From an uncultured Candidatus Saccharibacteria bacterium (GTDB lineage Bacteria > Patescibacteriota > WWE3 > UBA101185 > UBA10185): a DNA stretch of 64,000 nucleotides. The notes beneath the pieces are model-generated. The model made no database searches and had not been told where the DNA came from. It worked only from the letters and a program-made list of their open reading frames with translations. Shown one piece after another: positions 8,311 through 40,685 of this stretch. The stretch spans positions 67,573 to 131,572 of the forward strand of contig CAZBAJ010000001.1 of the NCBI GenBank assembly GCA_964490125.1, in the 5' to 3' direction. Every line of letters starts with the position of its first letter. Position 1 is the first letter of the stretch. Position numbers and translations under genes: made by a program.

Positions 8311-9471
8311 CTATTTTGAGGTTGGCGAACCCGTGTTACTTTCTACAGGCAAGATATAGTCGCCGGAGATGGCGGGGTAGTAAACGGTGAGTTGACCCGC
8401 ACCCCCGCCTACTGTCGTGTAATTTCCCTCAAACACATAAATTGGTTGTAAATACTTTTGCAATTTTGGCGTGTCGTAATAAGCCAGGTAGATACTGTTA
8501 ATTAAAATCTTGTCAATTCTTATTGGCACATACGGTTCAAACGGATTGCCGTCCTTTGCCATAATCCCAGCAATTACGCCCTTGTTTTTATTGACTTCCG
8601 CCCACGCCATGGCAACAGAAATTATCGGGTAAGTAGCGTTTTGGTCTTTTTCTTTGTCCACTAATTCCCATTGATACGCCTCCACCTTGGGGAAAATTAA
8701 CTGCTTGTATTTTGTATCTCTCGGCGTTCCTACCCAAACATGTAACAAACCTTTATACGGGTCCGGTCCTAAGATAGGAAAGCTTTTAAAACCTCTAAAA
8801 AAATCCACCCTAACAATTTGCGTTTCGTAGTCAAAGTTTACGGCGTGAATTTCTCCGCCTACATATTTGCCCAAATACGCTTTAGAAGTTCCTGTGTAGT
8901 ACATTTCTCCAAACCGTCCGGCAGAAACTAGCATGTTTCTGGCTTGGTCTGTTGCGGTGTCAGCCTTTAGTCGTCCAGCAATATAATAATTAGCTTTGCC
9001 AAATAATGGTAGATCTAATTTAATTTCCCGGGTTTTAGTATTGACATCAAGTCGCCCGTTAAAAGTAGGATCTACCCATGAATAAATTGGGTCAGTAGTT
9101 TGACTGATAAAACTGTCGTCATAATAACCTAAAATAGCTCCTGTGCGTTGGGCGTTTTTGCCTGCTTCATAGGAAAAAAGTGGTTGACGGAGTCTAAAAA
9201 CGGGCATTTTATTGGGAAAATCTGTGGGAAGACGACCGTTTTTGGTGTTTAAAATGTACTGCGGGTCCGAATTAGTGATTTTTTTGTATTGAAACTCCGG
9301 CGCGTCAATTTTGCCAAAGAGGGTGGTTGGCAGATCTTTTGGCGGATTAATCATGTAGACGAGTTTTTTGACGGGTGCTTTTAGGGTAACAAAGGCTATG
9401 TATAAGCCCAAAACCGCCACTACGGTAAAAAGAATGCGTTTAAATAGAGCAGATGTTTCTACCAAATTCAC
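8311..9471 (-). CDS. Hypothetical membrane-anchored (signal-anchor) secreted-domain protein
   Basis: N-terminal TM helix then 350-aa non-hydrophobic domain; no recognised catalytic motif. Confidence 0.5.
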   Translation of the reverse strand: MNLVETSALFKRILFTVVAVLGLYIAFVTLKAPVKKLVYMINPPKDLPTTLFGKIDAPEFQYKKITNSDPQYILNTKNGRLPTDFPNKMPVFRLRQPLFSYEAGKNAQRTGAILGYYDDSFISQTTDPIYSWVDPTFNGRLDVNTKTREIKLDLPLFGKANYYIAGRLKADTATDQARNMLVSAGRFGEMYYTGTSKAYLGKYVGGEIHAVNFDYETQIVRVDFFRGFKSFPILGPDPYKGLLHVWVGTPRDTKYKQLIFPKVEAYQWELVDKEKDQNATYPIISVAMAWAEVNKNKGVIAGIMAKDGNPFEPYVPIRIDKILINSIYLAYYDTPKLQKYLQPIYVFEGNYTTVGGGAGQLTVYYPAISGDYILPVESNTGSPTSK

Positions 9472-30198: not shown

Positions 30199-31317
30199 AT
30201 GAAAGTTCTTTTTCTAGCAAGGTCAGATCTTTACACGGTTGCCGGCGGGGACACCGTCCAAATAGAAAATACCGCAAAAGAGCTTAAAAAGCTTGGCGTG
30301 GATGTAGATGTTGCGACAAACTCACATGTGGATATTAAAAATTACGATCTTGTTCATATCTTTCAGCTTGACTGGGTGCCGGAGACCTACTTTTATGTTA
30401 AAAAAGCTAAGGAATACGGCAAACATATTGTTTTGTCGCCCATTCACCACGCAGAAGTTGAGGTTAAAAAGTTTGATGACATTTACACTTTTGGACTCCG
30501 TAAACTGGTGGGTTATTTTATCCGCAAGCAAGAGCATCGTGATATTTTAAAGAATATTTACCGGTCTTTGCACGACAAATCTAAGCTACTTCCAACCTTA
30601 AAAGGTGCTTTTTTTGGTTACAGGCGGACGCAAAGAGAGGCGTTAATAATGTCGGACATAGTTTTGGTGCAGACGGATCAGGAAGCCAAGGATTTACAGT
30701 CGACTTATAGAGTGGATTTTAAATGGCAAAAGGTGGTAAATGGCGTGTCAGAGCAGTTTTTGTCGTGCGACAAGTTTGTAAACAAACTAGCGTTTAAGGA
30801 TTACATAATATGCGTCGGGAGAATAGAGGCCAGAAAAAACCAATTAAATATTATTGAAGCGGTTAAACTTTTCCGCCAGGAAAAAGGTTTTGAAGATGTC
30901 AAGCTGGTGTTTTTGGGCAGACGGAGCGAACATCACAAAAGCTATATTGCCAAGTTCGACAATCAATTAAAGAGCAATAGCTGGATTGTCCACCCGGGTT
31001 TTATTCCGCAGGATGATATTCCCAGTTACTATCATTTTGCTAAAGTGGGAGTTTCTGCCAGCTGGTTTGAAACCACCGGACTCACCAGTTTGGAGGCGTT
31101 ATTTTGCGGAACAAATGTAGTAGCCAGTGGGGAACGGGCAAGAGAGCTTTTGGGCGACTTGGCGGTTTATTGCGAGCCAGCTGATGTAATCTCCATTAAA
31201 AATGCGCTTAGGGAGGCTTACACAAGACCTGCACCAGTAGTTCCGGCAAGTTTTAAAAAGGAATACACTTGGGAAAATGCCGCCAGGCAGACTTTGGAGG
31301 TTTATCATGAACTTTGA
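30199..31317 (+). CDS. Glycosyltransferase family 4
   Basis: ETTGLTSLEALFCGTNVVAS; start MKVLFLA. Confidence 0.7.
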   Translation: MKVLFLARSDLYTVAGGDTVQIENTAKELKKLGVDVDVATNSHVDIKNYDLVHIFQLDWVPETYFYVKKAKEYGKHIVLSPIHHAEVEVKKFDDIYTFGLRKLVGYFIRKQEHRDILKNIYRSLHDKSKLLPTLKGAFFGYRRTQREALIMSDIVLVQTDQEAKDLQSTYRVDFKWQKVVNGVSEQFLSCDKFVNKLAFKDYIICVGRIEARKNQLNIIEAVKLFRQEKGFEDVKLVFLGRRSEHHKSYIAKFDNQLKSNSWIVHPGFIPQDDIPSYYHFAKVGVSASWFETTGLTSLEALFCGTNVVASGERARELLGDLAVYCEPADVISIKNALREAYTRPAPVVPASFKKEYTWENAARQTLEVYHEL

Positions 31318-34162
31318 GCCTGTTTTTATAGCCTTGATTTTTGGTTTTTCGCTAATAGCGATGCTAGTAAGTCCTAAAAAATCGGTCTACCTTATTTTGG
31401 CTGCTTCGGTTTTATTACACAAGGAGCTTTTTAGCGTTTATTCTTGGAACATTCTGCCAATTAGAGTCGTTATGGGAGCAGTTTTGGGCTTTGTAATGCT
31501 CGACATCTTTAAGTCGGTCAAAAATAAACGGTTGGATTGGTTTAAGGAGCAGTTTCAAAGTCCGCTCCCGATTTTGCTCTTGGCATTTTGGGCGATTGCC
31601 GGAGTTTCCATATTTTTTTCCAAAAACATACCTGCTAGTTTGTCAGTTTATGTTTTCTTAACCACGGTTGTTGCGCTTTATTTTTACTTTAGTAAGATTT
31701 TTGACGGAGATAAATTTAGCGTATTACAAATTATTAAGGTTTACATCGGCATCGCTTTTATTTTGTCGCTCATAAGTTTTGTGCAAATTTGGGTTTATAA
31801 AAACTACAACTTTATCTTTGGCGCGTTTTGGAATGTACCCGGTCATACGCCTAGAGTAGGCTCGCTGTTTTGGGATGTAAACCATTTTGCCGGTTTTTTG
31901 GTGCTGTTACTGCCGATTGTGGGTGCTTTAGTTTTGGTGTCGACTTGGAGGCGTCGTCTAAAGTTTGGGCTAATGGGTATAACAATGTTTGTGACCTTGG
32001 CGTTGACTAACGCCCGCAGTGGTTGGATTGCCGGCGCGTTGGCGCTCTTGGTATTTGTGTTAATTTTGGTGTTTAGAAAGTTTAAATACAAGGGTTTTGC
32101 GGTCATATTTTCTTTACTTTTGGCTGTTACTGGGGGGGTTTTGTCACAGTATTTAGATAAGCAAAGCCCTGTACGACGGGAGATCCGGCAGTATTTTCAT
32201 TACCGCTTGGATTCGTTTGACTCGCATTTTTTGTTGCTTACCGGCGCCTGGCAAGTGTTTGAAAAATATCCCATTTTGGGCGGCGGGTACGGCGGTTTTT
32301 TTGAACACTTTGCTAAATCCAAAATCTCTGCAACTTTTTTTGCGCGTGATCCCGCCGCCCTGAATACCCGTGTGCCGGCTCATTCCACTTGGGGAGAGCT
32401 TCTAGCAGAAACCGGCGTTTTAGGTTTTTCTCTCATGTTGATGTTTTACGCCACCGTAGTTTTTACTCTACTTTACGCGTCCTTGCGCCTAAAAAAACGC
32501 CAGGAATTTATAGTTACTTCCGCCATGACGGCTTCCGTCGTAGGTATTCTGACGGCTGGAATTTTTTATTCTTACAACTCGGAGTTTTTCTGGATCATCT
32601 TACTTTTGTATTTTCTTTACGGGTTATATTGCTTGCGGACGGAATTTGTCGATCGTGGTGAAAGCCTTTGGAACGATATTTATTCTTATTTTATTTCTAA
32701 TCCAAAGTTTCCGCCGGCAGTTTTATTTGTTATCGCTTCAGCCCTAATTTTTATCAACCTAGGTTCTAATCATCTAATTCCGTACGATGAGGCTATTTAC
32801 GCCAAGGTCTCTCAAAACATTGTGCAAACAAACGATTGGCTAACCATGTTCTGGCGGGATGGTCTTCCGTGGTTTGAGAAACCGCCTTTGTATTTTTGGC
32901 TTTCCGCGTTGGCTTTAAAAATTCTTCCAGCAACTCCGGAGCTTGCCGTCCGCCTGCCGTCCGCCATATTTGGACTTCTGTCCGTTATGCTAATCTACAT
33001 CTTTGGTAAGAAGCTGTTTGGCAAAACCGCGGGTTTTATAGCAGGTTTTAGTTTGCTCACAATCTTTCATTTTTTGTATTACTCGCGACTCGGCATGCTA
33101 GATGTCACCTGCACATTTTTTATTCTCGCATCGCTTTATTTTTACTACCTAGCCTCGCAAGAAATTGGCAAAGCTAAACTTGTTTTGGCAGGACTTTTTC
33201 TGGGACTTGCAGTTTTAACTAAAGGCGTGGTGGGGTTTTTACCTCTAATAATTATTTCACTTTGGGAAGTTTCTGGACTTTTTAAGCGTCGCCCAACCGC
33301 GTCTACCATTTTTGTCTCACTAGCCAAAATTCTTGTCGTCCTACTTACCTCTGCAGTGATATTTTTGCCATGGCATTTAAAAATGTATCAGCTTCACGGT
33401 CAACCCTTTATAACAAGCTATTTGGGTTATCATGTTTTTGGCAGGGCGACGCTGGAAACGGAAGATAAGACCGGGCCGATTTACTGGTATTTTATTGTAC
33501 TAAAAGTTTCCATGCGACTTTGGTTTTTAGCTTTGATTCCCTCTGTAGTTTATGCGATTTACGGTCTAGTTAAGAATAAAACGGATCGTCCAAAGCTAGG
33601 TTTACTACTAATCTGGGCGGTGTTAATTTTGGCAGTTTTTTCCTTATCAAAGACCAAGTTGGTTTGGTATATTATGCCCATTTACCCTGCTTTGACGCTG
33701 TTAATTGGTTATTTCTATTCCGTTGCTTTAGCTTTTGTCGACCACAAACTTTCCCAACTTAAGCATGTCTCGTCCTTCTTTTTAAAAACTCTAATAATTT
33801 ATCTAACAGTTTGCGTCGTCTTGATTTATACGCTAATAAATAAGAATCTAATTTACCCGTCCGACTTAACGGGGTCACAGGCGCAAATGATGCAACTTAA
33901 AAACAGCATTTACGGTCAAAAAGAAAAAGTGTATTTGGACAGAATCGAGCTTCCGCTAGCGCTTTTTTATGCAGACGGACCTTTTGAAATCACCGATTTT
34001 ACTCCGTTACGCCAGTCGCTAAAAACCGCTAACGCGGAAAAAACCCGGCTACTATTTATTACCAAAGAAAGTCGATTTAAACAATTTCAAAAAGAGTATC
34101 CGGCAATAAAGCTTGTCGGCTCGGCAAAGGAGTGGTATTTTGGGGAGCTGGTGGCGCAATGA
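31307..34162 (+). CDS. Fusion membrane protein: O-antigen ligase/polymerase-like (Wzy_C) N-domain + PMT/ArnT-family (GT39/GT83) C-domain
   Basis: N-half: NARSGW region typical of Wzy_C; C-half: YDEAIYAKVSQN...FEKPPLYFWL hallmark of PMT/ArnT family; about 950 aa, more than 20 TM helices. Confidence 0.65.
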   Translation: MNFEPVFIALIFGFSLIAMLVSPKKSVYLILAASVLLHKELFSVYSWNILPIRVVMGAVLGFVMLDIFKSVKNKRLDWFKEQFQSPLPILLLAFWAIAGVSIFFSKNIPASLSVYVFLTTVVALYFYFSKIFDGDKFSVLQIIKVYIGIAFILSLISFVQIWVYKNYNFIFGAFWNVPGHTPRVGSLFWDVNHFAGFLVLLLPIVGALVLVSTWRRRLKFGLMGITMFVTLALTNARSGWIAGALALLVFVLILVFRKFKYKGFAVIFSLLLAVTGGVLSQYLDKQSPVRREIRQYFHYRLDSFDSHFLLLTGAWQVFEKYPILGGGYGGFFEHFAKSKISATFFARDPAALNTRVPAHSTWGELLAETGVLGFSLMLMFYATVVFTLLYASLRLKKRQEFIVTSAMTASVVGILTAGIFYSYNSEFFWIILLLYFLYGLYCLRTEFVDRGESLWNDIYSYFISNPKFPPAVLFVIASALIFINLGSNHLIPYDEAIYAKVSQNIVQTNDWLTMFWRDGLPWFEKPPLYFWLSALALKILPATPELAVRLPSAIFGLLSVMLIYIFGKKLFGKTAGFIAGFSLLTIFHFLYYSRLGMLDVTCTFFILASLYFYYLASQEIGKAKLVLAGLFLGLAVLTKGVVGFLPLIIISLWEVSGLFKRRPTASTIFVSLAKILVVLLTSAVIFLPWHLKMYQLHGQPFITSYLGYHVFGRATLETEDKTGPIYWYFIVLKVSMRLWFLALIPSVVYAIYGLVKNKTDRPKLGLLLIWAVLILAVFSLSKTKLVWYIMPIYPALTLLIGYFYSVALAFVDHKLSQLKHVSSFFLKTLIIYLTVCVVLIYTLINKNLIYPSDLTGSQAQMMQLKNSIYGQKEKVYLDRIELPLALFYADGPFEITDFTPLRQSLKTANAEKTRLLFITKESRFKQFQKEYPAIKLVGSAKEWYFGELVAQ

Positions 34163-35391
34163 GATATGTAACGGTGTTAAAAAAAGTTTCCTTGGTTAGC
34201 GCCGGCAACATAATAAATGCGGGTTTTGGACTAATTTTTCTTACCGCTTGCGCAAAAACATTAAATGTAGCCGACTTTGGCAAATACGCCCTGCTGACTA
34301 CCCTTTTGGTTTTTATGTCCAAGGTGGTGGATTTTGGCTCAAATTCTGTTTTTGTAGCCGAGTCGCTTAAAACCCAAAACCGACAAATGTTAATTGAGCG
34401 TTTTTATCTGCTTAAAGTAGCGTTATTCGGTGTAGCTTGTCTTCTATCCGTTGTCGTACTGTACTTTTTAGGTTTTGGCTCGCCTCCGGTAATAACTATT
34501 TTTCTTGTCGGACTTATTTTTTACTCCATTAATGTCACGCTTTTTGCTATTTATCAGTCTTTAGAAATGTTTAGACATGCGGTTTTGCTAAACACCATTC
34601 CGGCAATAGTCAAAGCAATTTTGGGCGGACTTATGCTTCTGCACATTTTTACCCCGTCGTTACTAACTATTTACGCCATATTTTCCCTGTCCATGGGACT
34701 CTGCATAGTCCTCTACTTTTTTATCCCAAAGGAATTTAAGTTTTTCCGTCAAACTGATAACTCGTCACAAGGGTTTCTGCCCATTCTTACAACCAGTTTT
34801 CCCGCAGGAATTTCCCAGCTTATTTCCCAAGGCTGGCCCGCAATTTCCAATACTATTGTTAAAATTTCCAAAGGATTTACAGATGTTGGGGTTTTTTATT
34901 TGGCCGACAAAATTGCCAATGTCTTTAATCTAGTCTCGCTTTCTATTTTTACGGTTATTTTGCCCCAAAATGCCCGGCGTAAAAAGGAGAATCTCCCGCA
35001 CGACTTAAAAGAAACCGCGTTTTTAGGTGTGCTTATTTTGCTATTGGCGTTTGGATTTGTTGGTGTTTCCGGTATTTTTGTGACCAAACTTTTTGGCGAC
35101 AAATTTAGCGGTTCTTTATTGATTTTGGACATTTTGATTGTTTCCTCGGCAATTTCTGCCATCCACGCGTTTATGGAAAATTATTTTTATATTCACGACA
35201 GCACCAAGACTATTATGTATATTTCTTTGGTAAAGCTTGGCGTATTTATTGCCCTTGCTCTAGCGCTGATTCCAGTTTTGTCCCTTAAAGGACTGGCACT
35301 AGCACAACTTGTTTCTTCCTTGCTTGGTCTTACGATTGTGGTTTTGACGACCATCTTTGCAAGTCGCAAACGCAGTTGGTCTAAGGTGTGA
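34159..35391 (+). CDS. wzx: Polysaccharide flippase (MOP/Wzx family)
   Basis: 12-14 TM, MOP-like repeats; ATGA overlap with upstream gene. Confidence 0.6.
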   Translation: MRYVTVLKKVSLVSAGNIINAGFGLIFLTACAKTLNVADFGKYALLTTLLVFMSKVVDFGSNSVFVAESLKTQNRQMLIERFYLLKVALFGVACLLSVVVLYFLGFGSPPVITIFLVGLIFYSINVTLFAIYQSLEMFRHAVLLNTIPAIVKAILGGLMLLHIFTPSLLTIYAIFSLSMGLCIVLYFFIPKEFKFFRQTDNSSQGFLPILTTSFPAGISQLISQGWPAISNTIVKISKGFTDVGVFYLADKIANVFNLVSLSIFTVILPQNARRKKENLPHDLKETAFLGVLILLLAFGFVGVSGIFVTKLFGDKFSGSLLILDILIVSSAISAIHAFMENYFYIHDSTKTIMYISLVKLGVFIALALALIPVLSLKGLALAQLVSSLLGLTIVVLTTIFASRKRSWSKV

Positions 35392-35485
35392 TTTTTGATT
35401 ACATGCGGTCTAAAGGTGGTTTTTCTGCTGTTGTTACAGGTTTGGTTTATTTATAAGGGTAAATTAGATATAATGACCGAAATGT

Positions 35486-37552
35486 TTGATTTATAACGGG
35501 TGTATAGATATGCAAGTACAACAATTACCGATTTACCAATTCTTAGAAGGTACTGGGAAGAGCTTTATAATACCTGTATATCAAAGAGATTATGCTTGGA
35601 CTAGGATTAATTGCCAAAGATTGTGGGATGACCTAGTAGATTTGAAAAACAACGCGAGAGCAGACCACTTTTTAGGTACCCTTGTCACCATCGGAAGCGG
35701 TTTCCAAGAGTACACGGTTATTGATGGTCAGCAGAGATTAACAACAACATCAATTTTACTAATTGCCTTACACACATTTATAAAAAACAAACTGGAAAAA
35801 AATGATGAAGAAAAAATATTATCCGAACAGGTTTTGGACTTTTTGATTAACAAGTATTCACCGGAACAAGATAAAAGAATAAGACTAAAGCCTAATAAAC
35901 AGGATAAGGAGCATTTTGAAAAGCTTTTTACAAACGGAAATGCCGAAAATGTTAATTCAAATATAGTGAGTAACTACAACTTTTTTTATGAAAAAATAAA
36001 GTCTGAAATATTATCCCCAAAAGAAGTATTCGACGCATTTAGAAAATTAAAAATCGTACTTATCGATTTGGTTAGAGGACAAGATGATCCGCAGTTAATT
36101 TTTGAGAGTTTAAACTCAACGGGGGTCGATCTTACTGCAGGAGATCTGATTCGTAATTACATCTTAATGGATTTACAACCCATCGAACAAGAAGGAATGT
36201 ATAAGAATTACTGGCTTAATATCGAAAGGTTAACAGGAAACATTGCAGAGTTCGTCAGAAATTACTTGATTTTTAAAACTAAGACATCGGTAAAAAAGGA
36301 TGATGTTTATACAGTATTTAAAAAATTCTCCTTGGATAATTTTCACAGGGATAAGGAATCCATTTTAAAGGATCTACTATATTACGCTGAAATGTATGGT
36401 TGGTTAGTACAGATAAACAACCATCCCAATAGTGTAGTAAATAATCAATTAAACAGACTTAACAAGCTTGAGTTCACGGTATCGCATCCGTACCTACTGG
36501 ATGTTTTCAGCGATTTAAAGGATGGTATTTTAACCGAACAGGCGGTTAAGGACATTTTAATAACTATTGAAAGCTATGCGTTCAGAAAAATGCTTGTAGA
36601 CAACACCACGCAAGGTTTAAACAAGATGTTTATCACACTTTCTAAGGACATAAAAAAAGAAGCATCTTGGAAAGAAATATATTTAGACATTTTGAATTTT
36701 ATACTTCTAGAAAAAAGAGTTTCCCAAAGATTCCCCAGTGATGATGAATTTGAAGCCGCGTTGATAACAAAAGAGGTTTATAGGCTACAAGCAAAGAACA
36801 GAAACTTTTTGCTAGAATCTTTAGAAAACTATAGTTCTGCTTATCCTGTAAATGTTGACGAATTGACAGTCGAACATATAATGCCCCAAACACTTACAAA
36901 AGAATGGAAAAGTAAATTGGGGGATAATTGGCAAGAATTACATAAAAAATATCTACATACTCTAGGCAATTTAAGTTTAACTGCAAAAAATACAGAGTTA
37001 TCCAATAATACTTTTGAAAATAAACAACAGATTGACTATCAAACCAGCAGATTGAAGTTAAATTTTAAACTGGAAGGTCTTACTGATTGGAATGAGGAGA
37101 AAATAATCGAGAGAGCAAAAGATTTAATAAAAAACGCCATAGATATTTGGCCGTTTCCTAAAACAACATACATCAAACCAATCCCCGAAGAGCAGGTTTT
37201 TGATTTAACCAGCGAAGATAGCTTTAGTGGAAGCAAGCCGTCTTTCCTTTATTTTGAAAACGATGATAGAGGGACTGAATTAAAAACATGGAGAGACTTG
37301 CTTACAAAAGGTTGCAGATTCTTGCATGATTTTTCGCCAACCCAGTTCTTGGAAATGCAGAACAGTCATGAATTTAAATGGTATTTCGACAACCAGAAGC
37401 CGTTAAGGCATCCTTTGGAGTTTATGCCAAATAAGTTTGTTGAAGGAAGTATTAGTGCTAATGGCGTTATCGCTTTTCTTTCAAAAATCTGTGAGAGGTT
37501 AAATTACCCTGCAGAAAACATATCATTTTCTATCAAAAATATAAAAGAATAA
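35486..37552 (+). CDS. DUF262 (ParB/Srx-like NTPase, DGQQR) + DUF1524 (His-Me finger, HIMPQ) protein: GmrSD/SspE/BrxU-like nuclease
   Basis: IDGQQRLTT motif N-terminal, TVEHIMPQT C-terminal; alternative start MQVQQL at 35510. Confidence 0.75.
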   Translation: MIYNGCIDMQVQQLPIYQFLEGTGKSFIIPVYQRDYAWTRINCQRLWDDLVDLKNNARADHFLGTLVTIGSGFQEYTVIDGQQRLTTTSILLIALHTFIKNKLEKNDEEKILSEQVLDFLINKYSPEQDKRIRLKPNKQDKEHFEKLFTNGNAENVNSNIVSNYNFFYEKIKSEILSPKEVFDAFRKLKIVLIDLVRGQDDPQLIFESLNSTGVDLTAGDLIRNYILMDLQPIEQEGMYKNYWLNIERLTGNIAEFVRNYLIFKTKTSVKKDDVYTVFKKFSLDNFHRDKESILKDLLYYAEMYGWLVQINNHPNSVVNNQLNRLNKLEFTVSHPYLLDVFSDLKDGILTEQAVKDILITIESYAFRKMLVDNTTQGLNKMFITLSKDIKKEASWKEIYLDILNFILLEKRVSQRFPSDDEFEAALITKEVYRLQAKNRNFLLESLENYSSAYPVNVDELTVEHIMPQTLTKEWKSKLGDNWQELHKKYLHTLGNLSLTAKNTELSNNTFENKQQIDYQTSRLKLNFKLEGLTDWNEEKIIERAKDLIKNAIDIWPFPKTTYIKPIPEEQVFDLTSEDSFSGSKPSFLYFENDDRGTELKTWRDLLTKGCRFLHDFSPTQFLEMQNSHEFKWYFDNQKPLRHPLEFMPNKFVEGSISANGVIAFLSKICERLNYPAENISFSIKNIKE

Positions 37553-37553
37553 T

Positions 37554-38249
37554 ATGGTGCCAAAATCGATAAGATACTCAAAATTTAACGATATTCATGC
37601 GGTTCTGAGTAAGTCTAAACTTTTGATTGAAAAAATTGAAGAAGAATACAAAAACTCCTTAACATTACAGACTGTTTCTGATGAATTACTAGTGGATATA
37701 AAGGATTATTTAGGTAATCTTCGTTCGGCATTAGACTATCTAAGAGCAAAGGTTTCAGGCCACAATTTTCCAATTTGCAAGACAGAAAAAGAATTTGAAA
37801 ATGCCACAGCCGACCTGCCGGACGAGTTAAAAACCATGTTTAAAAAATTTCAACCTTTTCAAGGAAACGAATGGATTGGGCGGTTCAACATCTTAAATAA
37901 CAAATCAAAACACCTGACCCTTATTCCACAAAAGAGAAAAGAGATTATTGAGACAAGAGTAACCCACCCTAGCGGAGGCGGGGTGAGCTGGTCTCAGGGC
38001 GTGACTTTCGGTAGCGGAGTAAGTGTTATGGGTGTTCCGATTGATCCGCGTACGCAAATGCCGATTCCTAATAATATTGTAAAAACTGAAAGAATTACTT
38101 GGGTTAGTTTTGAGTTTGATAATTCAAATTGCCCAGAATTGCCCCCAGACATTTCTGCCCTCCCGTTTTTAAAACAATGCTTTGGAAATGTTATCCGTGT
38201 AATTTCTGAAATTGAGACCGTGGTAAAGGGGTACGATTTAGATGCTTGA
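37554..38249 (+). CDS. Hypothetical protein (231 aa) translationally coupled to the DUF262/DUF1524 gene
   Basis: Starts 2 nt after upstream stop (TAATATG); end overlaps next GT4 start by 8 nt; no recognisable motif. Confidence 0.5.
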   Translation: MVPKSIRYSKFNDIHAVLSKSKLLIEKIEEEYKNSLTLQTVSDELLVDIKDYLGNLRSALDYLRAKVSGHNFPICKTEKEFENATADLPDELKTMFKKFQPFQGNEWIGRFNILNNKSKHLTLIPQKRKEIIETRVTHPSGGGVSWSQGVTFGSGVSVMGVPIDPRTQMPIPNNIVKTERITWVSFEFDNSNCPELPPDISALPFLKQCFGNVIRVISEIETVVKGYDLDA

Positions 38250-39390
38250 GATTGGACAAAAAAAACCTTACAATAGTAGGTTAAAAATTGGAATAGATGC
38301 CAGGTTTTGGAGTCAGACGGGGGTTGGGCGGTATATCCGCCAGATTGTTGGGGAACTTGCCAAGCTGGACGACAAAAATGATTATGTGGTGTATGTAATG
38401 GCGGAGGATTTTGACAAAGTCGTCCTGCCCGCAAATTTTAAAAAAGTAAAAACTAATATTCGTTGGCACACCTTGTCGGAGCAGTTTATTTTGCCAATCC
38501 TCTACCTTCAAGAAAATCTGGATGTCCTAGTCGTCCTAAATTTTAATGTCCCAATTTTTTACCCCAAAAAGTTTGTTACAACCGTCCACGATTTAACTTT
38601 ACTGCGAACCCGTACCGGTCGCGCAACCCGCCTTCCTTATGCACTTTATCTTATAAAATATCTGGCGGGGTGTTTAACGCATTATGTGGCTATAAAAAGG
38701 TCGGCCAAACTATTTACTGTGTCCAATTATGTCAAGAACGACATTATAAAAACCTTTGGAGTAAAGCCGGAAAAAATTGTTTTGACGCCAAATGCTGTGG
38801 ATCAAAGATTTTATAAAAGGCCGGACGACGAGGTGGTGCGGGTTTTGCAAAAATACGGCTTAGCTAAGCCTTACCTGTTCTATGTGGGCAACGCGTGTAC
38901 GCATAAAAATTTATGGCGGTTGGTGCAGGCGTTTGACATTTTGAGTGAGTCCGAGCCGGATTTGCGTTTGGTTTTAGGCGGTAAGCGGGATTTTAATTAC
39001 GACAATTTGGAGAAGAAGTTTGCGGGGCTAAGGTGTGTGGAAAAGATTAAGTTAATTGGTTTTGTTGACGACGACGATTTGCCGGCTTTATATAGTGGGG
39101 CAAGTTTGTATGTAAATCCATCTATGTACGAAGGTTTTGGCATTCAAATTTTGGAGGCCTACGCTTGCGGATGTAGGGTTGCTTGTTCCAACTCCACTTC
39201 TTTACCAGAAGTTGGTGGGGGTTTGGCGGAGTATTTTGATCCTGTGGATGTTCAAAATATTGCCAATGTAATAAAAAATGCTTTACATAAAGATGCGCCC
39301 GATTTTGAAACCAAAGCTCGTCAGCATGCCGGACGATATTCATGGAAAAGTTCTGCTCAAGCTGTTCTGCAAACCATTCAAAATATATGA
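38242..39390 (+). CDS. Glycosyltransferase family 4
   Basis: YVNPSMYEGFGIQILEAYACG. Confidence 0.75.
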   Translation: MLEIGQKKPYNSRLKIGIDARFWSQTGVGRYIRQIVGELAKLDDKNDYVVYVMAEDFDKVVLPANFKKVKTNIRWHTLSEQFILPILYLQENLDVLVVLNFNVPIFYPKKFVTTVHDLTLLRTRTGRATRLPYALYLIKYLAGCLTHYVAIKRSAKLFTVSNYVKNDIIKTFGVKPEKIVLTPNAVDQRFYKRPDDEVVRVLQKYGLAKPYLFYVGNACTHKNLWRLVQAFDILSESEPDLRLVLGGKRDFNYDNLEKKFAGLRCVEKIKLIGFVDDDDLPALYSGASLYVNPSMYEGFGIQILEAYACGCRVACSNSTSLPEVGGGLAEYFDPVDVQNIANVIKNALHKDAPDFETKARQHAGRYSWKSSAQAVLQTIQNI

Positions 39391-40685
39391 AGATCGCCTT
39401 AGTTTTTGACGACTTAATACAGTTTGGCGGGGCGGAAAGACTCTTGCTTGCCGTCCACGAACTTTACCCAGACGCTCCTGTTTACACATCCTTGGCAAGT
39501 GACGAGTGGATTGCGCGCTGTAAGGAAAAAAACATCCGGTTGGTAACGTCATGGATGCAGGGTCTGCCGTTTAAAAGGTCGCTCAACCGGTTTTACGGAC
39601 TTTTGGGTTTGCACGCCCTGGCTTTTGAGTCGTTTAAATTTGACGACTTTGATGTGGCGATTTCTATTTCTGCCCGATTTGCCCACGGAATTGCTACTAA
39701 ACCCTGCACTTTACACATTTGTTATATGAACTCGCCCGGTAGAATGTTTTGGGAGTCGCAGGATTACTTTGACCGGGAGAATTTTTTGCGGTACGACTTA
39801 GTAAGACGATTGTTTTGGTTTTTTGCCACGCCGTTTTTGTCTTTATTGCGACTTTGTGATTATGCCGGCGCGCGGAGGGTGGACTATTTTATTGCCAATT
39901 CCAAAACTCCGCAGGCGCGTATTGCCAAGTACTACAAGCGCGACTCTTCCATAATTTACCCTTTTGTAGACGACATAGACCAATTAAAGGGGCGCGCCCC
40001 CGTGACGAGCGATTCCGCAGTCCGCCTTGGCGGACGAGGACCTAGCGAGGATGGGGGCGTCGCCCCGTATTATTTAGTAGTCACAAGGTTGAATGCTTGG
40101 AAGCGCGTGGATATCGCTATTGAGGCATGCAAAACAATTGGCGCAAATTTAAAAATCATTGGCGAGGGTCCGGATAGGTTGCGTTTAGAAAAATTGGCGA
40201 CAGGAAATAATAAGATCGCTTCGGCTACGCCTCGCGATGACATTGGGGATAATGGTCAGAGCGATGGTTCTGATGACAATCCGAGAGGAAATCAGACCGA
40301 CAGTCGCGATGATACTAGTATTGACTTTCTGGGCTATGTGAGCGACGAGGAAAAAACCCACGCCATGCAAAATTGCACAGCCCTTATCGTCACTCAGAAA
40401 GAGGATTTTGGCATTACCGCGCTGGAGGCCATGGCGCTAGGAAAACCAGTAATTGCTTACCGAGCTGGTGGCGTGTTAGAAACCGTTATAGAAGGCGTTA
40501 CGGGAGAGTTTTTTGACGCCCAAACCCCGCAGTCGCTCGCCCAAAAATTGTCCTCCTTTACCCCGTCAACCTACAAAGCGCAAGACTGCATCAACCAGTC
40601 GTCCAACTTCTCCAAACAAAAACTTCTTACCAAATTGGACGAGGCAGTCAAAACCCTTTACAATAGAAAAACTAACCTGCCGTAA
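39387..40685 (+). CDS. Glycosyltransferase family 4 with acidic low-complexity insertion
   Basis: GITALEAMALGKPVIAYRAGG; insertion ATGNNKIASATPRDDIGDNGQSDGSDDNPRGNQTDSRDD; start MKIALVF (ATGA overlap). Confidence 0.7.
   Translation: MKIALVFDDLIQFGGAERLLLAVHELYPDAPVYTSLASDEWIARCKEKNIRLVTSWMQGLPFKRSLNRFYGLLGLHALAFESFKFDDFDVAISISARFAHGIATKPCTLHICYMNSPGRMFWESQDYFDRENFLRYDLVRRLFWFFATPFLSLLRLCDYAGARRVDYFIANSKTPQARIAKYYKRDSSIIYPFVDDIDQLKGRAPVTSDSAVRLGGRGPSEDGGVAPYYLVVTRLNAWKRVDIAIEACKTIGANLKIIGEGPDRLRLEKLATGNNKIASATPRDDIGDNGQSDGSDDNPRGNQTDSRDDTSIDFLGYVSDEEKTHAMQNCTALIVTQKEDFGITALEAMALGKPVIAYRAGGVLETVIEGVTGEFFDAQTPQSLAQKLSSFTPSTYKAQDCINQSSNFSKQKLLTKLDEAVKTLYNRKTNLP

Follow-up and report, generated by a model that had tools for sequence, protein, structure and literature searches.

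Single-chain GmrSD-like proteins can act in defence on their own, as HEC-06 defends as a single gene and its DGQQR and EH mutants are inactive (bioRxiv 10.1101/2024.01.29.577857). Besides this single-gene organization, a two-gene GmrSD system (GmrS1 plus GmrSD2) has been described in E. coli ECOR17, whose second gene is indispensable and encodes nothing but a ParB_n/DUF262 domain (PMC12373910). Accessory genes have also been linked to restriction-modification (R-M) loci in general. For example, at least 16 HEPN clades are tied to R-M operons (Anantharaman et al. 2013, PMC3710099), and RonA of the Ronin system is a 61-aa membrane protein (bioRxiv 10.1101/2023.04.06.535777).

This paper describes a tightly coupled gene pair in a 64,000-nucleotide stretch of DNA, the whole of which is referred to as the window, and which consists of a GmrSD-family gene followed by a gene of a large unnamed family, designated X (Table 1). 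With moderate confidence, the pair is interpreted as a stand-alone type IV enzyme accompanied by a portable, probably defence-related gene that is found downstream of restriction genes.

Table 1. Features of the GmrSD-X locus, with positions given as those of the window.
Feature	Position	Strand	Evidence or remark
GmrSD gene, single-chain, type IV restriction family, 680 aa	35510..37552	+	Pfam, PADLOC
GmrSD_N (DUF262, ParB/Srx-like NTPase)	35540..36163	+	DGQQR at 35723-35737
GmrSD_C (DUF1524, His-Me finger nuclease)	36731..37132	+	EHIMPQ at 36872-36889
GmrSD C-terminal tail, aa 542-680	37133..37549	+	Alpha/beta domain, apparently SeqA-C-like
Gene X, 231 aa, large unnamed family linked to restriction genes	37554..38249	+	ORF call
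X helical-bundle part, aa 1-125	37554..37928	+	Most invariant polar residues: Y32, R57, S58, D61, Q100, N116, K119, H120
X motif NNKSKH	37896-37913	+	Within helical-bundle part
X exchangeable beta-subdomain, aa 130-176	37941..38081	+	Identity jumps, DNA break
Inserted segment	35319..38283	+	About 2.97 kb, between flippase gene and next GT4 gene
Cassette leader	35440..35509	+	Conserved -10-like box (ATATAAT), GGGTG Shine-Dalgarno-like element
Rebuilt 5' end of downstream GT4 gene	38242..38283	+	New ATG 13 codons before ancestral start

The larger protein belongs to the GmrSD family, in which a DUF262 NTPase is combined with a DUF1524 His-Me nuclease, and it carries an extra domain at its C-terminus that appears to be SeqA-C-like. 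The two family domains were assigned by Pfam PF03235 (E=5.4e-36; 125 bits versus a gathering cut-off of 33.2), with DGQQR at aa 72-76, and by PF07510 (E=5.3e-26; 91.6 bits versus a gathering cut-off of 23), with EHIMPQ at aa 455-460. Among the PADLOC models, the protein matched Orf5 (1.4e-141) as well as the HEC-06 models (4e-67 to 7e-66 over aa 9-557), while its resemblance to SspE, in both PADLOC and PDB sequences, was limited to the N-terminal part (aa ~13-125). More than 120 clusters of full-length homologs were found at 53% identity or above. The open reading frame on the forward strand (35486..37552) encodes 688 aa from a TTG codon; the true start is probably the ATG at 35510, as in all homologs and in L001, where the gene was called independently. 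The reading frame, both domains and their motifs are as described in the first-pass annotation, with the likely product corrected from 688 to 680 aa. The C-terminal tail shares 13-17% identity with the SeqA C-terminal domain without giving a Pfam SeqA match, and it is joined to a nuclease, whereas SeqA-C is joined to an oligomerisation domain. On structural resemblance, this tail is a putative DNA- or modification-reading module, which suggests that one GmrSD subfamily may hold a DNA-reading module that has not been described before.

The pair resides on an AT-rich cassette of ~2.9 kb that was horizontally acquired into the glycan operon of a candidate-division WWE3 (CPR) bacterium, because the corresponding site is empty in the syntenic locus L119, GC and GC3 drop across the pair, and cassette DNA that is 78-86% identical recurs in unrelated contexts. 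Upstream of the pair, Pfam analysis identified three GT4 genes along with a Wzy_C/PMT fusion and a Polysacc_synt flippase; a further two GT4 genes and a Bac_transf gene lie downstream. The same operon is present in L119, which also derives from candidate division WWE3 and encodes a flippase that is 78% identical to that of the window. In L119, only 3 nt separate the flippase stop codon from the start of GT4; the ~2.97 kb found between these genes in the window therefore represents an insertion. Synteny in blastn ended at window position 35318 (L119 8160) and restarted at 38284 (L119 8228). Exact matches to the downstream GT4 protein were confined to the same genome. The GC content was 0.335 for the GmrSD gene, 0.382 for X and 0.314 for the leader, versus 0.40-0.48 for the flanking genes and 0.416 for the window, and GC3 was 0.335 for GmrSD and 0.349 for X versus 0.40-0.52 for the flanking genes. 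These values and the empty site bear out what had been proposed by eye, namely that the pair is more AT-rich than the flanking GT genes and was inserted into a glycan-biosynthesis operon. Neither terminal repeats nor a target-site duplication were found at the insertion ends, and scans for tRNA genes and Rfam families gave no match in the window. The 8-nt overlap between the X stop and the downstream GT4 reading frame, which had been noted previously, is real, although this GT4 start is itself a product of the insertion: the N-terminus reads MKIGIDARFW in L119 and MLEIGQKKPYNSR-LKIGIDARFW in the window.

DNA homology between cassettes begins at ~35440, and the leader is conserved in GmrSD-X cassettes of unrelated contexts (L025, L028, L031). 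It contains an imperfect 29-nt direct repeat (35443-35471 / 35483-35511) and, by consensus resemblance only, would constitute a promoter; a generic sigma-70 scan did not flag its -10-like box.

Judged by its homologs, X is a real and conserved gene, since a word-indexed search retrieved 449 of these, and an exhaustive profile search 2,433 cluster representatives (the about 2,400 family clusters being defined at 50% identity). The X protein gave no match in Pfam at E <= 0.01, nor any in PADLOC, NCBIfam or PDB sequences, in line with its initial description as a 231-aa reading frame without a recognisable motif, and 94 family members together with the family profile likewise gave no significant match in any of these collections. 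Moreover, none of the 5,027 PADLOC v2 models, which include the PDCs that their authors state to have been added, matched X. Identity with a known glycan-pathway enzyme, the case that the first-pass annotation had named as refuting its proposal, is excluded, as X is not a glycan enzyme. Several copies of the gene are frameshifted or truncated (L020/L021, L041, L048, L072), and such copies are common for costly defence genes.

An AF2 model of X (pLDDT 91.8, pTM 0.83) revealed a helical bundle. Among 237 members, conservation amounted to 99% for H120, 99% for Q100, 98% for Q126, 96% for Y32, 95% for D61, 93% for S58 and 92% for N116. The conserved motif is N-x-x-K-H, and its -5 position is occupied by Asn in 52% and by Arg in ~9% of these members, the Arg of the canonical HEPN Rx4-6H signature being missing in about 91%. 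In the model, the helical bundle appears to resemble HEPN toxins weakly: HepT toxins were the highest-probability Foldseek matches in PDB (none at E < 0.1), Ribonuc_2-5A (KEN/HEPN) gave a sub-threshold match in 12 of the 94 members, always over the motif region, and HEPN_Apea matched one member at E=0.19. All HEPN-family profiles remained below their gathering scores in the X members (the best, Ribonuc_2-5A, reaching 19.4 bits versus 23.3), hhalign of the X family with the DUF4145 (HEPN) protein that adjoins X in L022 yielded 0.1% probability, and no P-loop or ATPase domain was found in X. The beta-subdomain that follows the bundle is exchanged between family members. Over aa 7-129, 130-176 and 177-225, respectively, identity with the window X was 86%, 30% and 76% for P0010, and 67%, 85% and 57% for P0007. 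Furthermore, the DNA homology between L028 and the window is interrupted exactly at 37942-38080, and alternative segments were seen in the family alignment.

Members of the X family are positioned co-oriented and immediately 3' of restriction or modification genes of unrelated types (I, II, ISP and IV). In a census of 45 de-duplicated, tightly linked upstream neighbours, at least 19 were R-M genes, comprising GmrSD (4), HsdM (3), C5 methylase (3), Mrr_cat (3) and Type ISP (2), as well as single cases of DpnII, D12 methylase, HsdR and PD-(D/E)XK. The gap between the upstream gene and X had a median of 13 nt and was 25 nt or less in 27 of the 45 cases; in the window it is a 1-nt spacer (TAA T ATG), where 2 nt had initially been counted. 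Downstream, HsdS was the neighbour in 4 of 28 cases, and in loci of the Bacteroidota type X is followed by an 83-aa ORF. In L010, L075, L089 and L052, X even lies between hsdM and hsdS, with overlaps of 4 nt, and in P0243 it forms a fusion protein with a complete HsdS. The close relatives of the window X follow Mrr_cat/NA-iREase1, HaeIII R plus C5 methylase, D12 methylase, HsdM, HsdR and PD-(D/E)XK genes, those behind Mrr-like, HaeIII-type, Dam-type and type I R-M genes being 58-73% identical to it. Recurrent, co-oriented and tight placement by R-M genes in unrelated genomes, the hallmark of R-M-attached defence genes, was thus observed for X. Other neighbours of a defence type included Lit-like Peptidase_U49, RelA/SpoT, QueC with a deoxyribosyltransferase, a KAP NTPase, a HerA-like ATPase and DUF4145. 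Some X genes follow the housekeeping genes SecA, ThrRS or DnaK, or have no close upstream gene, and the R-M linkage of X is frequent, not universal. Two further roles were considered and rejected: a Vsr-like repair function beside C5 methylases, because X also occurs after GmrSD, Mrr, HsdM and HsdR and has no PD-(D/E)XK signature, and a C-protein-like regulator, because X has no HTH and is placed 3' of restriction genes, not 5'.

The first-pass annotation had proposed that X is the obligate partner in a new two-component GmrSD module, which would make the pair a type IV system in which X is needed for GmrSD activity or control. The tight coupling in the window agrees with this proposal, and so do the two-gene precedents GmrS1+GmrSD2 of ECOR17 (PMC12373910) and, reportedly, TgvAB (PMC11014532). 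Moreover, the co-occurrence that the annotation had suggested to look for was indeed observed, as the GmrSD-X unit recurs in L025/L026/L031, L028/L029 and L046, where DNA that is 78-86% identical lies in unrelated neighbourhoods. The same cassette thus occurs in no fewer than three further contexts, where its two genes co-vary in sequence (identity of 81-92% for GmrSD and about 71-82% for X), but only within the narrow clade that is delimited by this GmrSD identity. However, the 4 close GmrSD homologs that were inspected, which are 77-84% identical and agree in length and tail, are all solo genes; the gene next to them is on the opposite strand, and their DNA homology with the window stops exactly at the GmrSD stop codon. 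The close relatives being solo, GmrSD therefore does not need X. X is also far commoner with other partners, including unrelated R-M genes, GmrSD accounting for 4 of the 45 tight upstream neighbours and being absent upstream of X in all 15 loci taken from species-representative genomes. In addition, the related HEC-06 is active as a single gene, and the ParB_n/DUF262 domain that characterizes the second gene of the two-gene systems (PMC12373910) is absent from X, for which no DUF262/DUF1524 match was found in 94 members at E <= 10. These comparative sequence data already largely refute an obligate two-component system, which is considered very improbable. The GmrSD-X coupling is real, but it is one case of X riding behind any restriction gene and is not GmrSD-specific; taken alone, the GmrSD gene would encode an ordinary, self-sufficient type IV enzyme.

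If X is not an obligate partner, it could still be guarded by its neighbour, as in PrrC or Ronin: the partner R-M protein would bind and silence X, and a phage anti-restriction protein would set the toxic X free. The translational coupling of X to the upstream restriction gene (1-nt spacer in the window, median gap 13 nt), its position between hsdM and hsdS in the loci mentioned above and the HsdS fusion in P0243 are in agreement with such a model, and PrrC and RonA are precedents of effectors that are restrained by R-M subunits (PMC3710099; bioRxiv 10.1101/2023.04.06.535777). Guarding is nevertheless regarded as unlikely, as X proteins that are 58-80% identical pair with GmrSD, Mrr, HaeIII R-M, Dam-type methylase, HsdM and HsdR, and some X genes are without any R-M neighbour. 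Specific inhibitory contacts are hard to reconcile with partners that are structurally unrelated while the X proteins are similar, and X therefore most likely acts autonomously and not via specific protein contact, although the fusion of X to HsdS could instead point to a direct physical coupling. Alternatively, X might be a selfish or hitch-hiking gene with a function in mobility, addiction or regulation and no immune effector role, which gathers in R-M-rich variable islands. Its clean insertion at gene ends, with the homology of solo GmrSD genes stopping at the stop codon, would fit this explanation, as would its highly variable contexts (including SecA, ThrRS and DnaK), its mosaic recombination and frequent pseudogenes, and the fact that no known defence model matches it. 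Little credence is given to this explanation, since X is unlike transposases, integrases, homing endonucleases and HTH regulators, terminal repeats were not found, and X was not found in viral contigs, phage records or plasmid records. Furthermore, X is strictly co-oriented with restriction genes and separated from them by very short gaps, which speaks for co-expression and against a random residence in islands. A broader proposal, which is doubtful at this stage, is that X represents a widespread, partner-agnostic class of restriction back-up effectors, i.e., non-canonical HEPN-like enzymes of which the beta-subdomain senses restriction failure or activity and which elicit abortive infection. 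The signal sensed by such an effector could be, e.g., an anti-restriction factor of a phage or a product of restriction. Such a gene would be pluggable behind type I, II, ISP and IV genes and would spread along with them, especially in CPR bacteria and Bacteroidota.

In the favoured interpretation of a stand-alone type IV enzyme with a portable X, GmrSD would be a type IV nuclease that depends on DNA modification and needs no partner, as demonstrated by experiment for the related HEC-06, and its SeqA-like tail may help it to read modified DNA. X would be a portable accessory defence gene that is co-transcribed and translationally coupled with the preceding restriction gene, adding a second, abortive-infection-type layer behind restriction. 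Its helical bundle with the invariant His and the conserved polar cluster may constitute an enzyme, perhaps a non-canonical HEPN-like RNase, and the exchangeable beta-subdomain could be a specificity or sensing element. The interest of the locus lies in this rider, as it belongs to an unnamed family that has no model in Pfam, NCBIfam or PADLOC, and its location within a few nt of R-M genes of at least four mechanistic types makes it a candidate for a new layer of immunity that is accessory to restriction. H120, D61 and N116 offer targets for mutagenesis, and the alternative beta-subdomains provide natural specificity variants. Besides, the locus is a clean example of a defence cassette inside a CPR cell-surface glycan operon, with the start of the downstream gene rebuilt.

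Compared with the described systems, the window GmrSD shares with HEC-06, PADLOC 'Orf5', BrxU, SspE and EcoCT GmrSD the arrangement of DUF262 (DGQQR), linker and DUF1524 (His-Me, EHxxP) in one chain. It matches the models of HEC-06 over their full length and, like HEC-06, would act without a partner, its close relatives occurring as solo genes, whereas the additional C-terminal domain of ~139 aa, which appears SeqA-C-like, sets it apart from the single-chain GmrSD-like profiles. It is situated in a glycan operon and not in a BREX, Hma or Ssp locus: BREX-type domains, by which BrxU is recognised, were absent from the 10 flanking genes, and the match with SspE was partial (aa ~13-125), the adjacent genes being glycan genes and not ssp genes. 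The pair resembles GmrS1+GmrSD2 and, reportedly, TgvAB of Vibrio cholerae in the tight linkage of a GmrSD-type nuclease gene to a second gene, but X differs from the second gene of GmrS1+GmrSD2 in having neither DUF262 nor DUF1524 and in being dispensable, judging from the solo homologs. As a small gene nested in type I R-M loci, X is comparable to Ronin (RonA plus orphan HsdMS) and to the PDCs (Payne et al. 2024, 'guilt-by-embedding'), which provide, or are expected to provide, additional layers of defence; RonA itself was rejected as a match for the X proteins embedded between hsdM and hsdS, X being a soluble protein of 220-250 aa whereas RonA is a 61-aa membrane protein. Finally, X resembles the R-M-linked HEPN proteins (PrrC/RloC, ApeA, AbiU2, AbiJ, DUF4145) in being a small accessory gene that is co-oriented with or embedded in several R-M types, and apparently also in its helical bundle with a conserved His, R-N-x-x-x-H being present in a minority of the members. 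It differs from PrrC/RloC, in which an N-terminal ABC-ATPase precedes a C-terminal HEPN nuclease, by having no ABC-ATPase, and from HEPN proteins by the exchangeable beta-subdomain of ~60 aa that separates the motif helix from the last helix.

The first gene of the pair encodes a GmrSD-type protein, as the first-pass annotation had proposed: Pfam GmrSD_N (DUF262) and GmrSD_C (DUF1524) were matched far over their thresholds, both the DGQQR and the EHIMPQ motif are present, and PADLOC related the protein to the GmrSD-like families 'Orf5' (1.4e-141) and HEC-06 (about 1e-66). The proposed likeness to SspE holds for the N-terminal part only. Translation almost certainly starts at ATG 35510, yielding 680 aa, and not at TTG 35486, because an independent gene call uses this ATG and all close homologs measure 676-683 aa. 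The following 231-aa ORF, here designated X, is tightly spaced as described, but the GmrSD stop (TAA) is separated from the X ATG by one base and not by 2 nt. X overlaps the next glycosyltransferase (GT4) ORF by 8 nt, and it indeed lacks a recognisable motif, with no match in Pfam, NCBIfam, PADLOC or PDB sequences. The AT-richness judged by eye was borne out by measurement (GC 0.335 for GmrSD and 0.382 for X, versus 0.40-0.48 in the genes around them and 0.416 over the whole window); the leader has a GC of 0.314, and GC3 falls like GC across the cassette. The surrounding glycan operon encodes three GT4 proteins, a Wzy_C/PMT fusion and a flippase upstream, and two GT4 proteins and a Bac_transf protein downstream. 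Apart from minor corrections of start codon and spacer, the initial observation is confirmed.

The suspected insertion is established by an empty site in the syntenic contig L119 (GCA_040960375.1), in which the operon matches gene for gene. Its flippase is 78% identical to that of the window, whose named relatives all belong to candidate division WWE3 (CPR), and 3 nt separate the flippase stop from the GT4 start, with neither GmrSD nor X in between. Nucleotide synteny ends at window position 35318 and restarts at 38284, with 2,966 nt in place of 68 nt. The ancestral GT4 start MKIGIDARFW of L119 reads LKIGIDARFW in the window; since the ancestral ATG is lost and a new start lies 13 codons upstream, in junction sequence without counterpart in L119, the insertion rebuilt the GT4 5' end. 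Neither terminal repeats nor a target-site duplication were found at the insertion ends, and tRNA and Rfam scans of the window gave no match.

Elsewhere in the operon, the fusion protein combines O-antigen-ligase-like Wzy_C with PMT/PMT_2 (dolichyl-phosphate-mannose-type glycosyltransferase) domains and is kept in L119 (951 aa). The GT4 gene at 39342-40685 encodes 447 aa (398 aa in L119) and exceeds all other genes of the operon in GC (0.478; GC3 0.52). Synteny with L119 is interrupted between 40178 and 40320 (L119 10125-10162). Close to this break, blastn gave a short match on the reverse strand (39987-40071 versus L119 10015-9924); together these features suggest that DNA was rearranged or inserted locally.

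The GmrSD-X order recurs at several loci. X homologue P0004 (80% identical) follows a 682-aa GmrSD, with phytase and malic-enzyme genes adjoining; P0010 (about 71%) follows a 680-aa GmrSD, with a type III restriction-modification (R-M) system adjoining on the other strand; and locus L046 has the same order. The GmrSDs of these loci are 81-92% identical to that of the window over their full length. Cassette DNA from ~35440 to 38215/38221 is 78-86% identical in such loci, and the homology takes in a leader of ~70 nt that contains a box resembling ATATAAT and a GGGTG element and is conserved among the other cassettes. Judging from this shared DNA, the cassette moves as a unit, within a narrow clade only. 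A direct repeat in the leader may be a regulatory site.

Coordinates of features in the window and in compared loci (L-numbers)
Feature	Position	Strand	Remark
Wzy_C/PMT fusion	31277-34162		961 aa
Imperfect direct repeat, 29 nt	35443-35471 and 35483-35511		Cassette leader, just 5' of GmrSD start; 72% identical, 40-nt spacing
GmrSD ORF, as first called	35486..37552	+	688 aa from TTG
X ORF	37554..38249	+	231 aa, same orientation as GmrSD
Rebuilt GT4 5' end	38242-38283	+	New ATG 13 codons upstream, overlaps X stop
83-aa ORF	L014 8714-8965; L016 2122-2373; L019 8712-8963; L057 869-1120; L088 2094-2345; L027 5497-5745		
Broken X copies	L020 4866-5561; L021 349-1044; L041 6178-6648; L048 5992-6658; L072 639-1088		

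An obligate two-component GmrSD-X system, as the first-pass annotation envisaged, is largely refuted: co-occurrence recurs within the narrow clade, but outside it the pair dissolves from both sides. Four of four GmrSD homologs on long contigs (84, 81, 80 and 77% identity) are solo and are followed by a gene in the reverse orientation, and their DNA homology to the window is confined to the GmrSD ORF (35508-37551). The partners of X vary likewise: an Mrr_cat/NA-iREase1 protein precedes P0007 (69%), a HaeIII endonuclease and C5 methylase pair precedes P0013 (66%), and a Dam-class methylase precedes X in L032 (73%). P0026 (58%) is flanked by hsdM and hsdS and overlaps each of them by 4 nt; L075 and L089 show the order HsdM-X-HsdS, L078 has HsdR followed by X, and L013 has HsdR, HsdM/S and PD-(D/E)XK genes followed by X. 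GmrSD was upstream of X in 0 of 15 loci from species-representative genomes. Comparison of these loci shows that the pairing is non-obligate.

X habitually sits behind restriction genes in general. Among 92 de-duplicated X loci pooled from genome, metagenome and exact-match look-ups, 45 had a tight upstream neighbour (same-strand ORF of >=100 aa within 200 nt), at a median gap of 13 nt (<=25 nt in 27/45). In a Pfam tally, these neighbours comprised GmrSD (4/45), HsdM, C5 methylase and Mrr_cat/NA-iREase1 (3/45 each), Type ISP (2/45), and DpnII, D12 methylase, HsdR and PD-(D/E)XK (1/45 each), bringing R-M genes to at least 19/45. With R-M genes accounting for well below 1% of the genes of bacteria in general, the enrichment would be very strong against this background. 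Among the remaining neighbours are a KAP NTPase, a HerA-like ATPase, proteases and, in a few cases, housekeeping genes (SecA, ThrRS). HsdS is the downstream neighbour in 4 of 28 cases, and other defence-type neighbours are Lit-like Peptidase_U49, RelA/SpoT, QueC with deoxyribosyltransferase, and DUF4145. X was not found in viral contigs, annotated phage records or plasmid records. In L022 (Moraniibacteriota; 8449-9117), X follows dnaK and precedes by 21 nt a 222-aa DUF4145 (HEPN-type) protein, to which hhalign found no relationship. A conserved 83-aa ORF (MTLHIF.CS.RQT..G.TPD..G.NLP...; 66-99% identical), without a PDB sequence relative and not present in the window, lies 3' of X at a distance of 17-30 nt in five loci and of about 940 nt in the Mrr-X locus; this small protein may be a partner of X specific to certain lineages.

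By homology, X is a genuine protein family: a word-indexed search gave 449 matches, and an exhaustive profile search 2,433 cluster representatives (E <= 1e-3), nearly all stand-alone and of 220-250 aa. AF2 gave a high-confidence model (pLDDT 91.8, pTM 0.83), with predicted helices at 12-38, 43-67, 78-97 (broken), 106-120 and, finally, 202-224, and a beta unit at 126-188. Over 237 diverse members (residue numbers are printed positions +6) the top-conserved residues are polar, namely H120 and Q100 (99%), Q126 (98%), Y32 (96%), D61 (95%), S58 (93%), N116 (92%), K119 (91%), R57 (86%), E130 (85%) and R128 (82%), a pattern that suggests an active site. The motif ending in the His is N-x-x-K-H family-wide and R-N-K-x-x-H in one subclade, the latter as in the KEN domain of RNase L/Ire1. 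X is best called HEPN-like but non-canonical, and is not filed as a HEPN family member, because Foldseek returned nothing below E=0.1 (the highest-probability matches being HepT toxins), profile matches were sub-threshold (Ribonuc_2-5A in 12/94 members, all across the motif region; HEPN_Apea in 1/94), and the Arg occurs in only about 9% of members. The beta-subdomain (aa 130-176; window 37941-38081) is exchangeable and mosaic: P0010 and the window X share 86%, 30% and 76% identity in their N-terminal, beta and C-terminal parts, and DNA homology breaks exactly at this subdomain (compare L028 3414-3573). In P0007 and P0026, conservation is highest in the beta part, and backbones that are otherwise similar exchange at least three or four versions of this subdomain that are unrelated in sequence. 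Frameshifted or truncated copies, seen as split or short ORFs in several loci, suggest recurrent inactivation.

The GmrSD protein would work alone as a modification-dependent nuclease, since the related HEC-06 is a single-gene defence, inactivated by DGQQR and EH mutations (bioRxiv 10.1101/2024.01.29.577857). X would be an accessory defence gene, portable and expressed together with whichever restriction gene precedes it. Autonomous action of X is probable, as X proteins that are nearly identical are paired with unrelated partners. The chief competing explanation is a guard model in which X binds its restriction or modification partner directly; it is favoured by P0243 (619 aa), a putative fusion from the exhaustive profile search, where an X domain (aa 1-229) with the motif FRNKNSH continues in frame into a complete HsdS carrying two Methylase_S target-recognition domains. 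A non-immune, selfish X gene is also possible. As an accessory defence gene, X could possibly be a HEPN-like RNase serving as abortive-infection back-up, a role that Anantharaman et al. (PMC3710099) suggested for no fewer than 16 HEPN clades linked to R-M genes, with PrrC and Ronin as precedents (PMC3710099; bioRxiv 10.1101/2023.04.06.535777).

With the two-component claim downgraded, the X family, riding behind restriction genes, is a concrete, testable candidate. The GmrSD of the window is of the already known HEC-06/Orf5 kind; its SeqA-like C-terminal tail, which might read methylated DNA, is possibly undescribed so far. Extra GmrSD domains in a phylogenomics study were DUF4268, DUF4357 and DNA_binding_1, with SeqA not among them (PMC4619093), and in the literature searched SeqA, 'type IV restriction' and GmrSD came together in a general review only. 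The pair does not belong with the two-gene GmrSD systems described in PMC12373910, in which the second gene has a ParB_n/DUF262 domain. X fits the concept of R-M-embedded or attached accessory genes (PMC3710099; Payne et al. 2024), and PADLOC, embedded candidates included, has no model for it; what sets it apart from the known R-M accessory genes is that the family has no name, its motif is non-canonical and its beta-subdomain is exchangeable.
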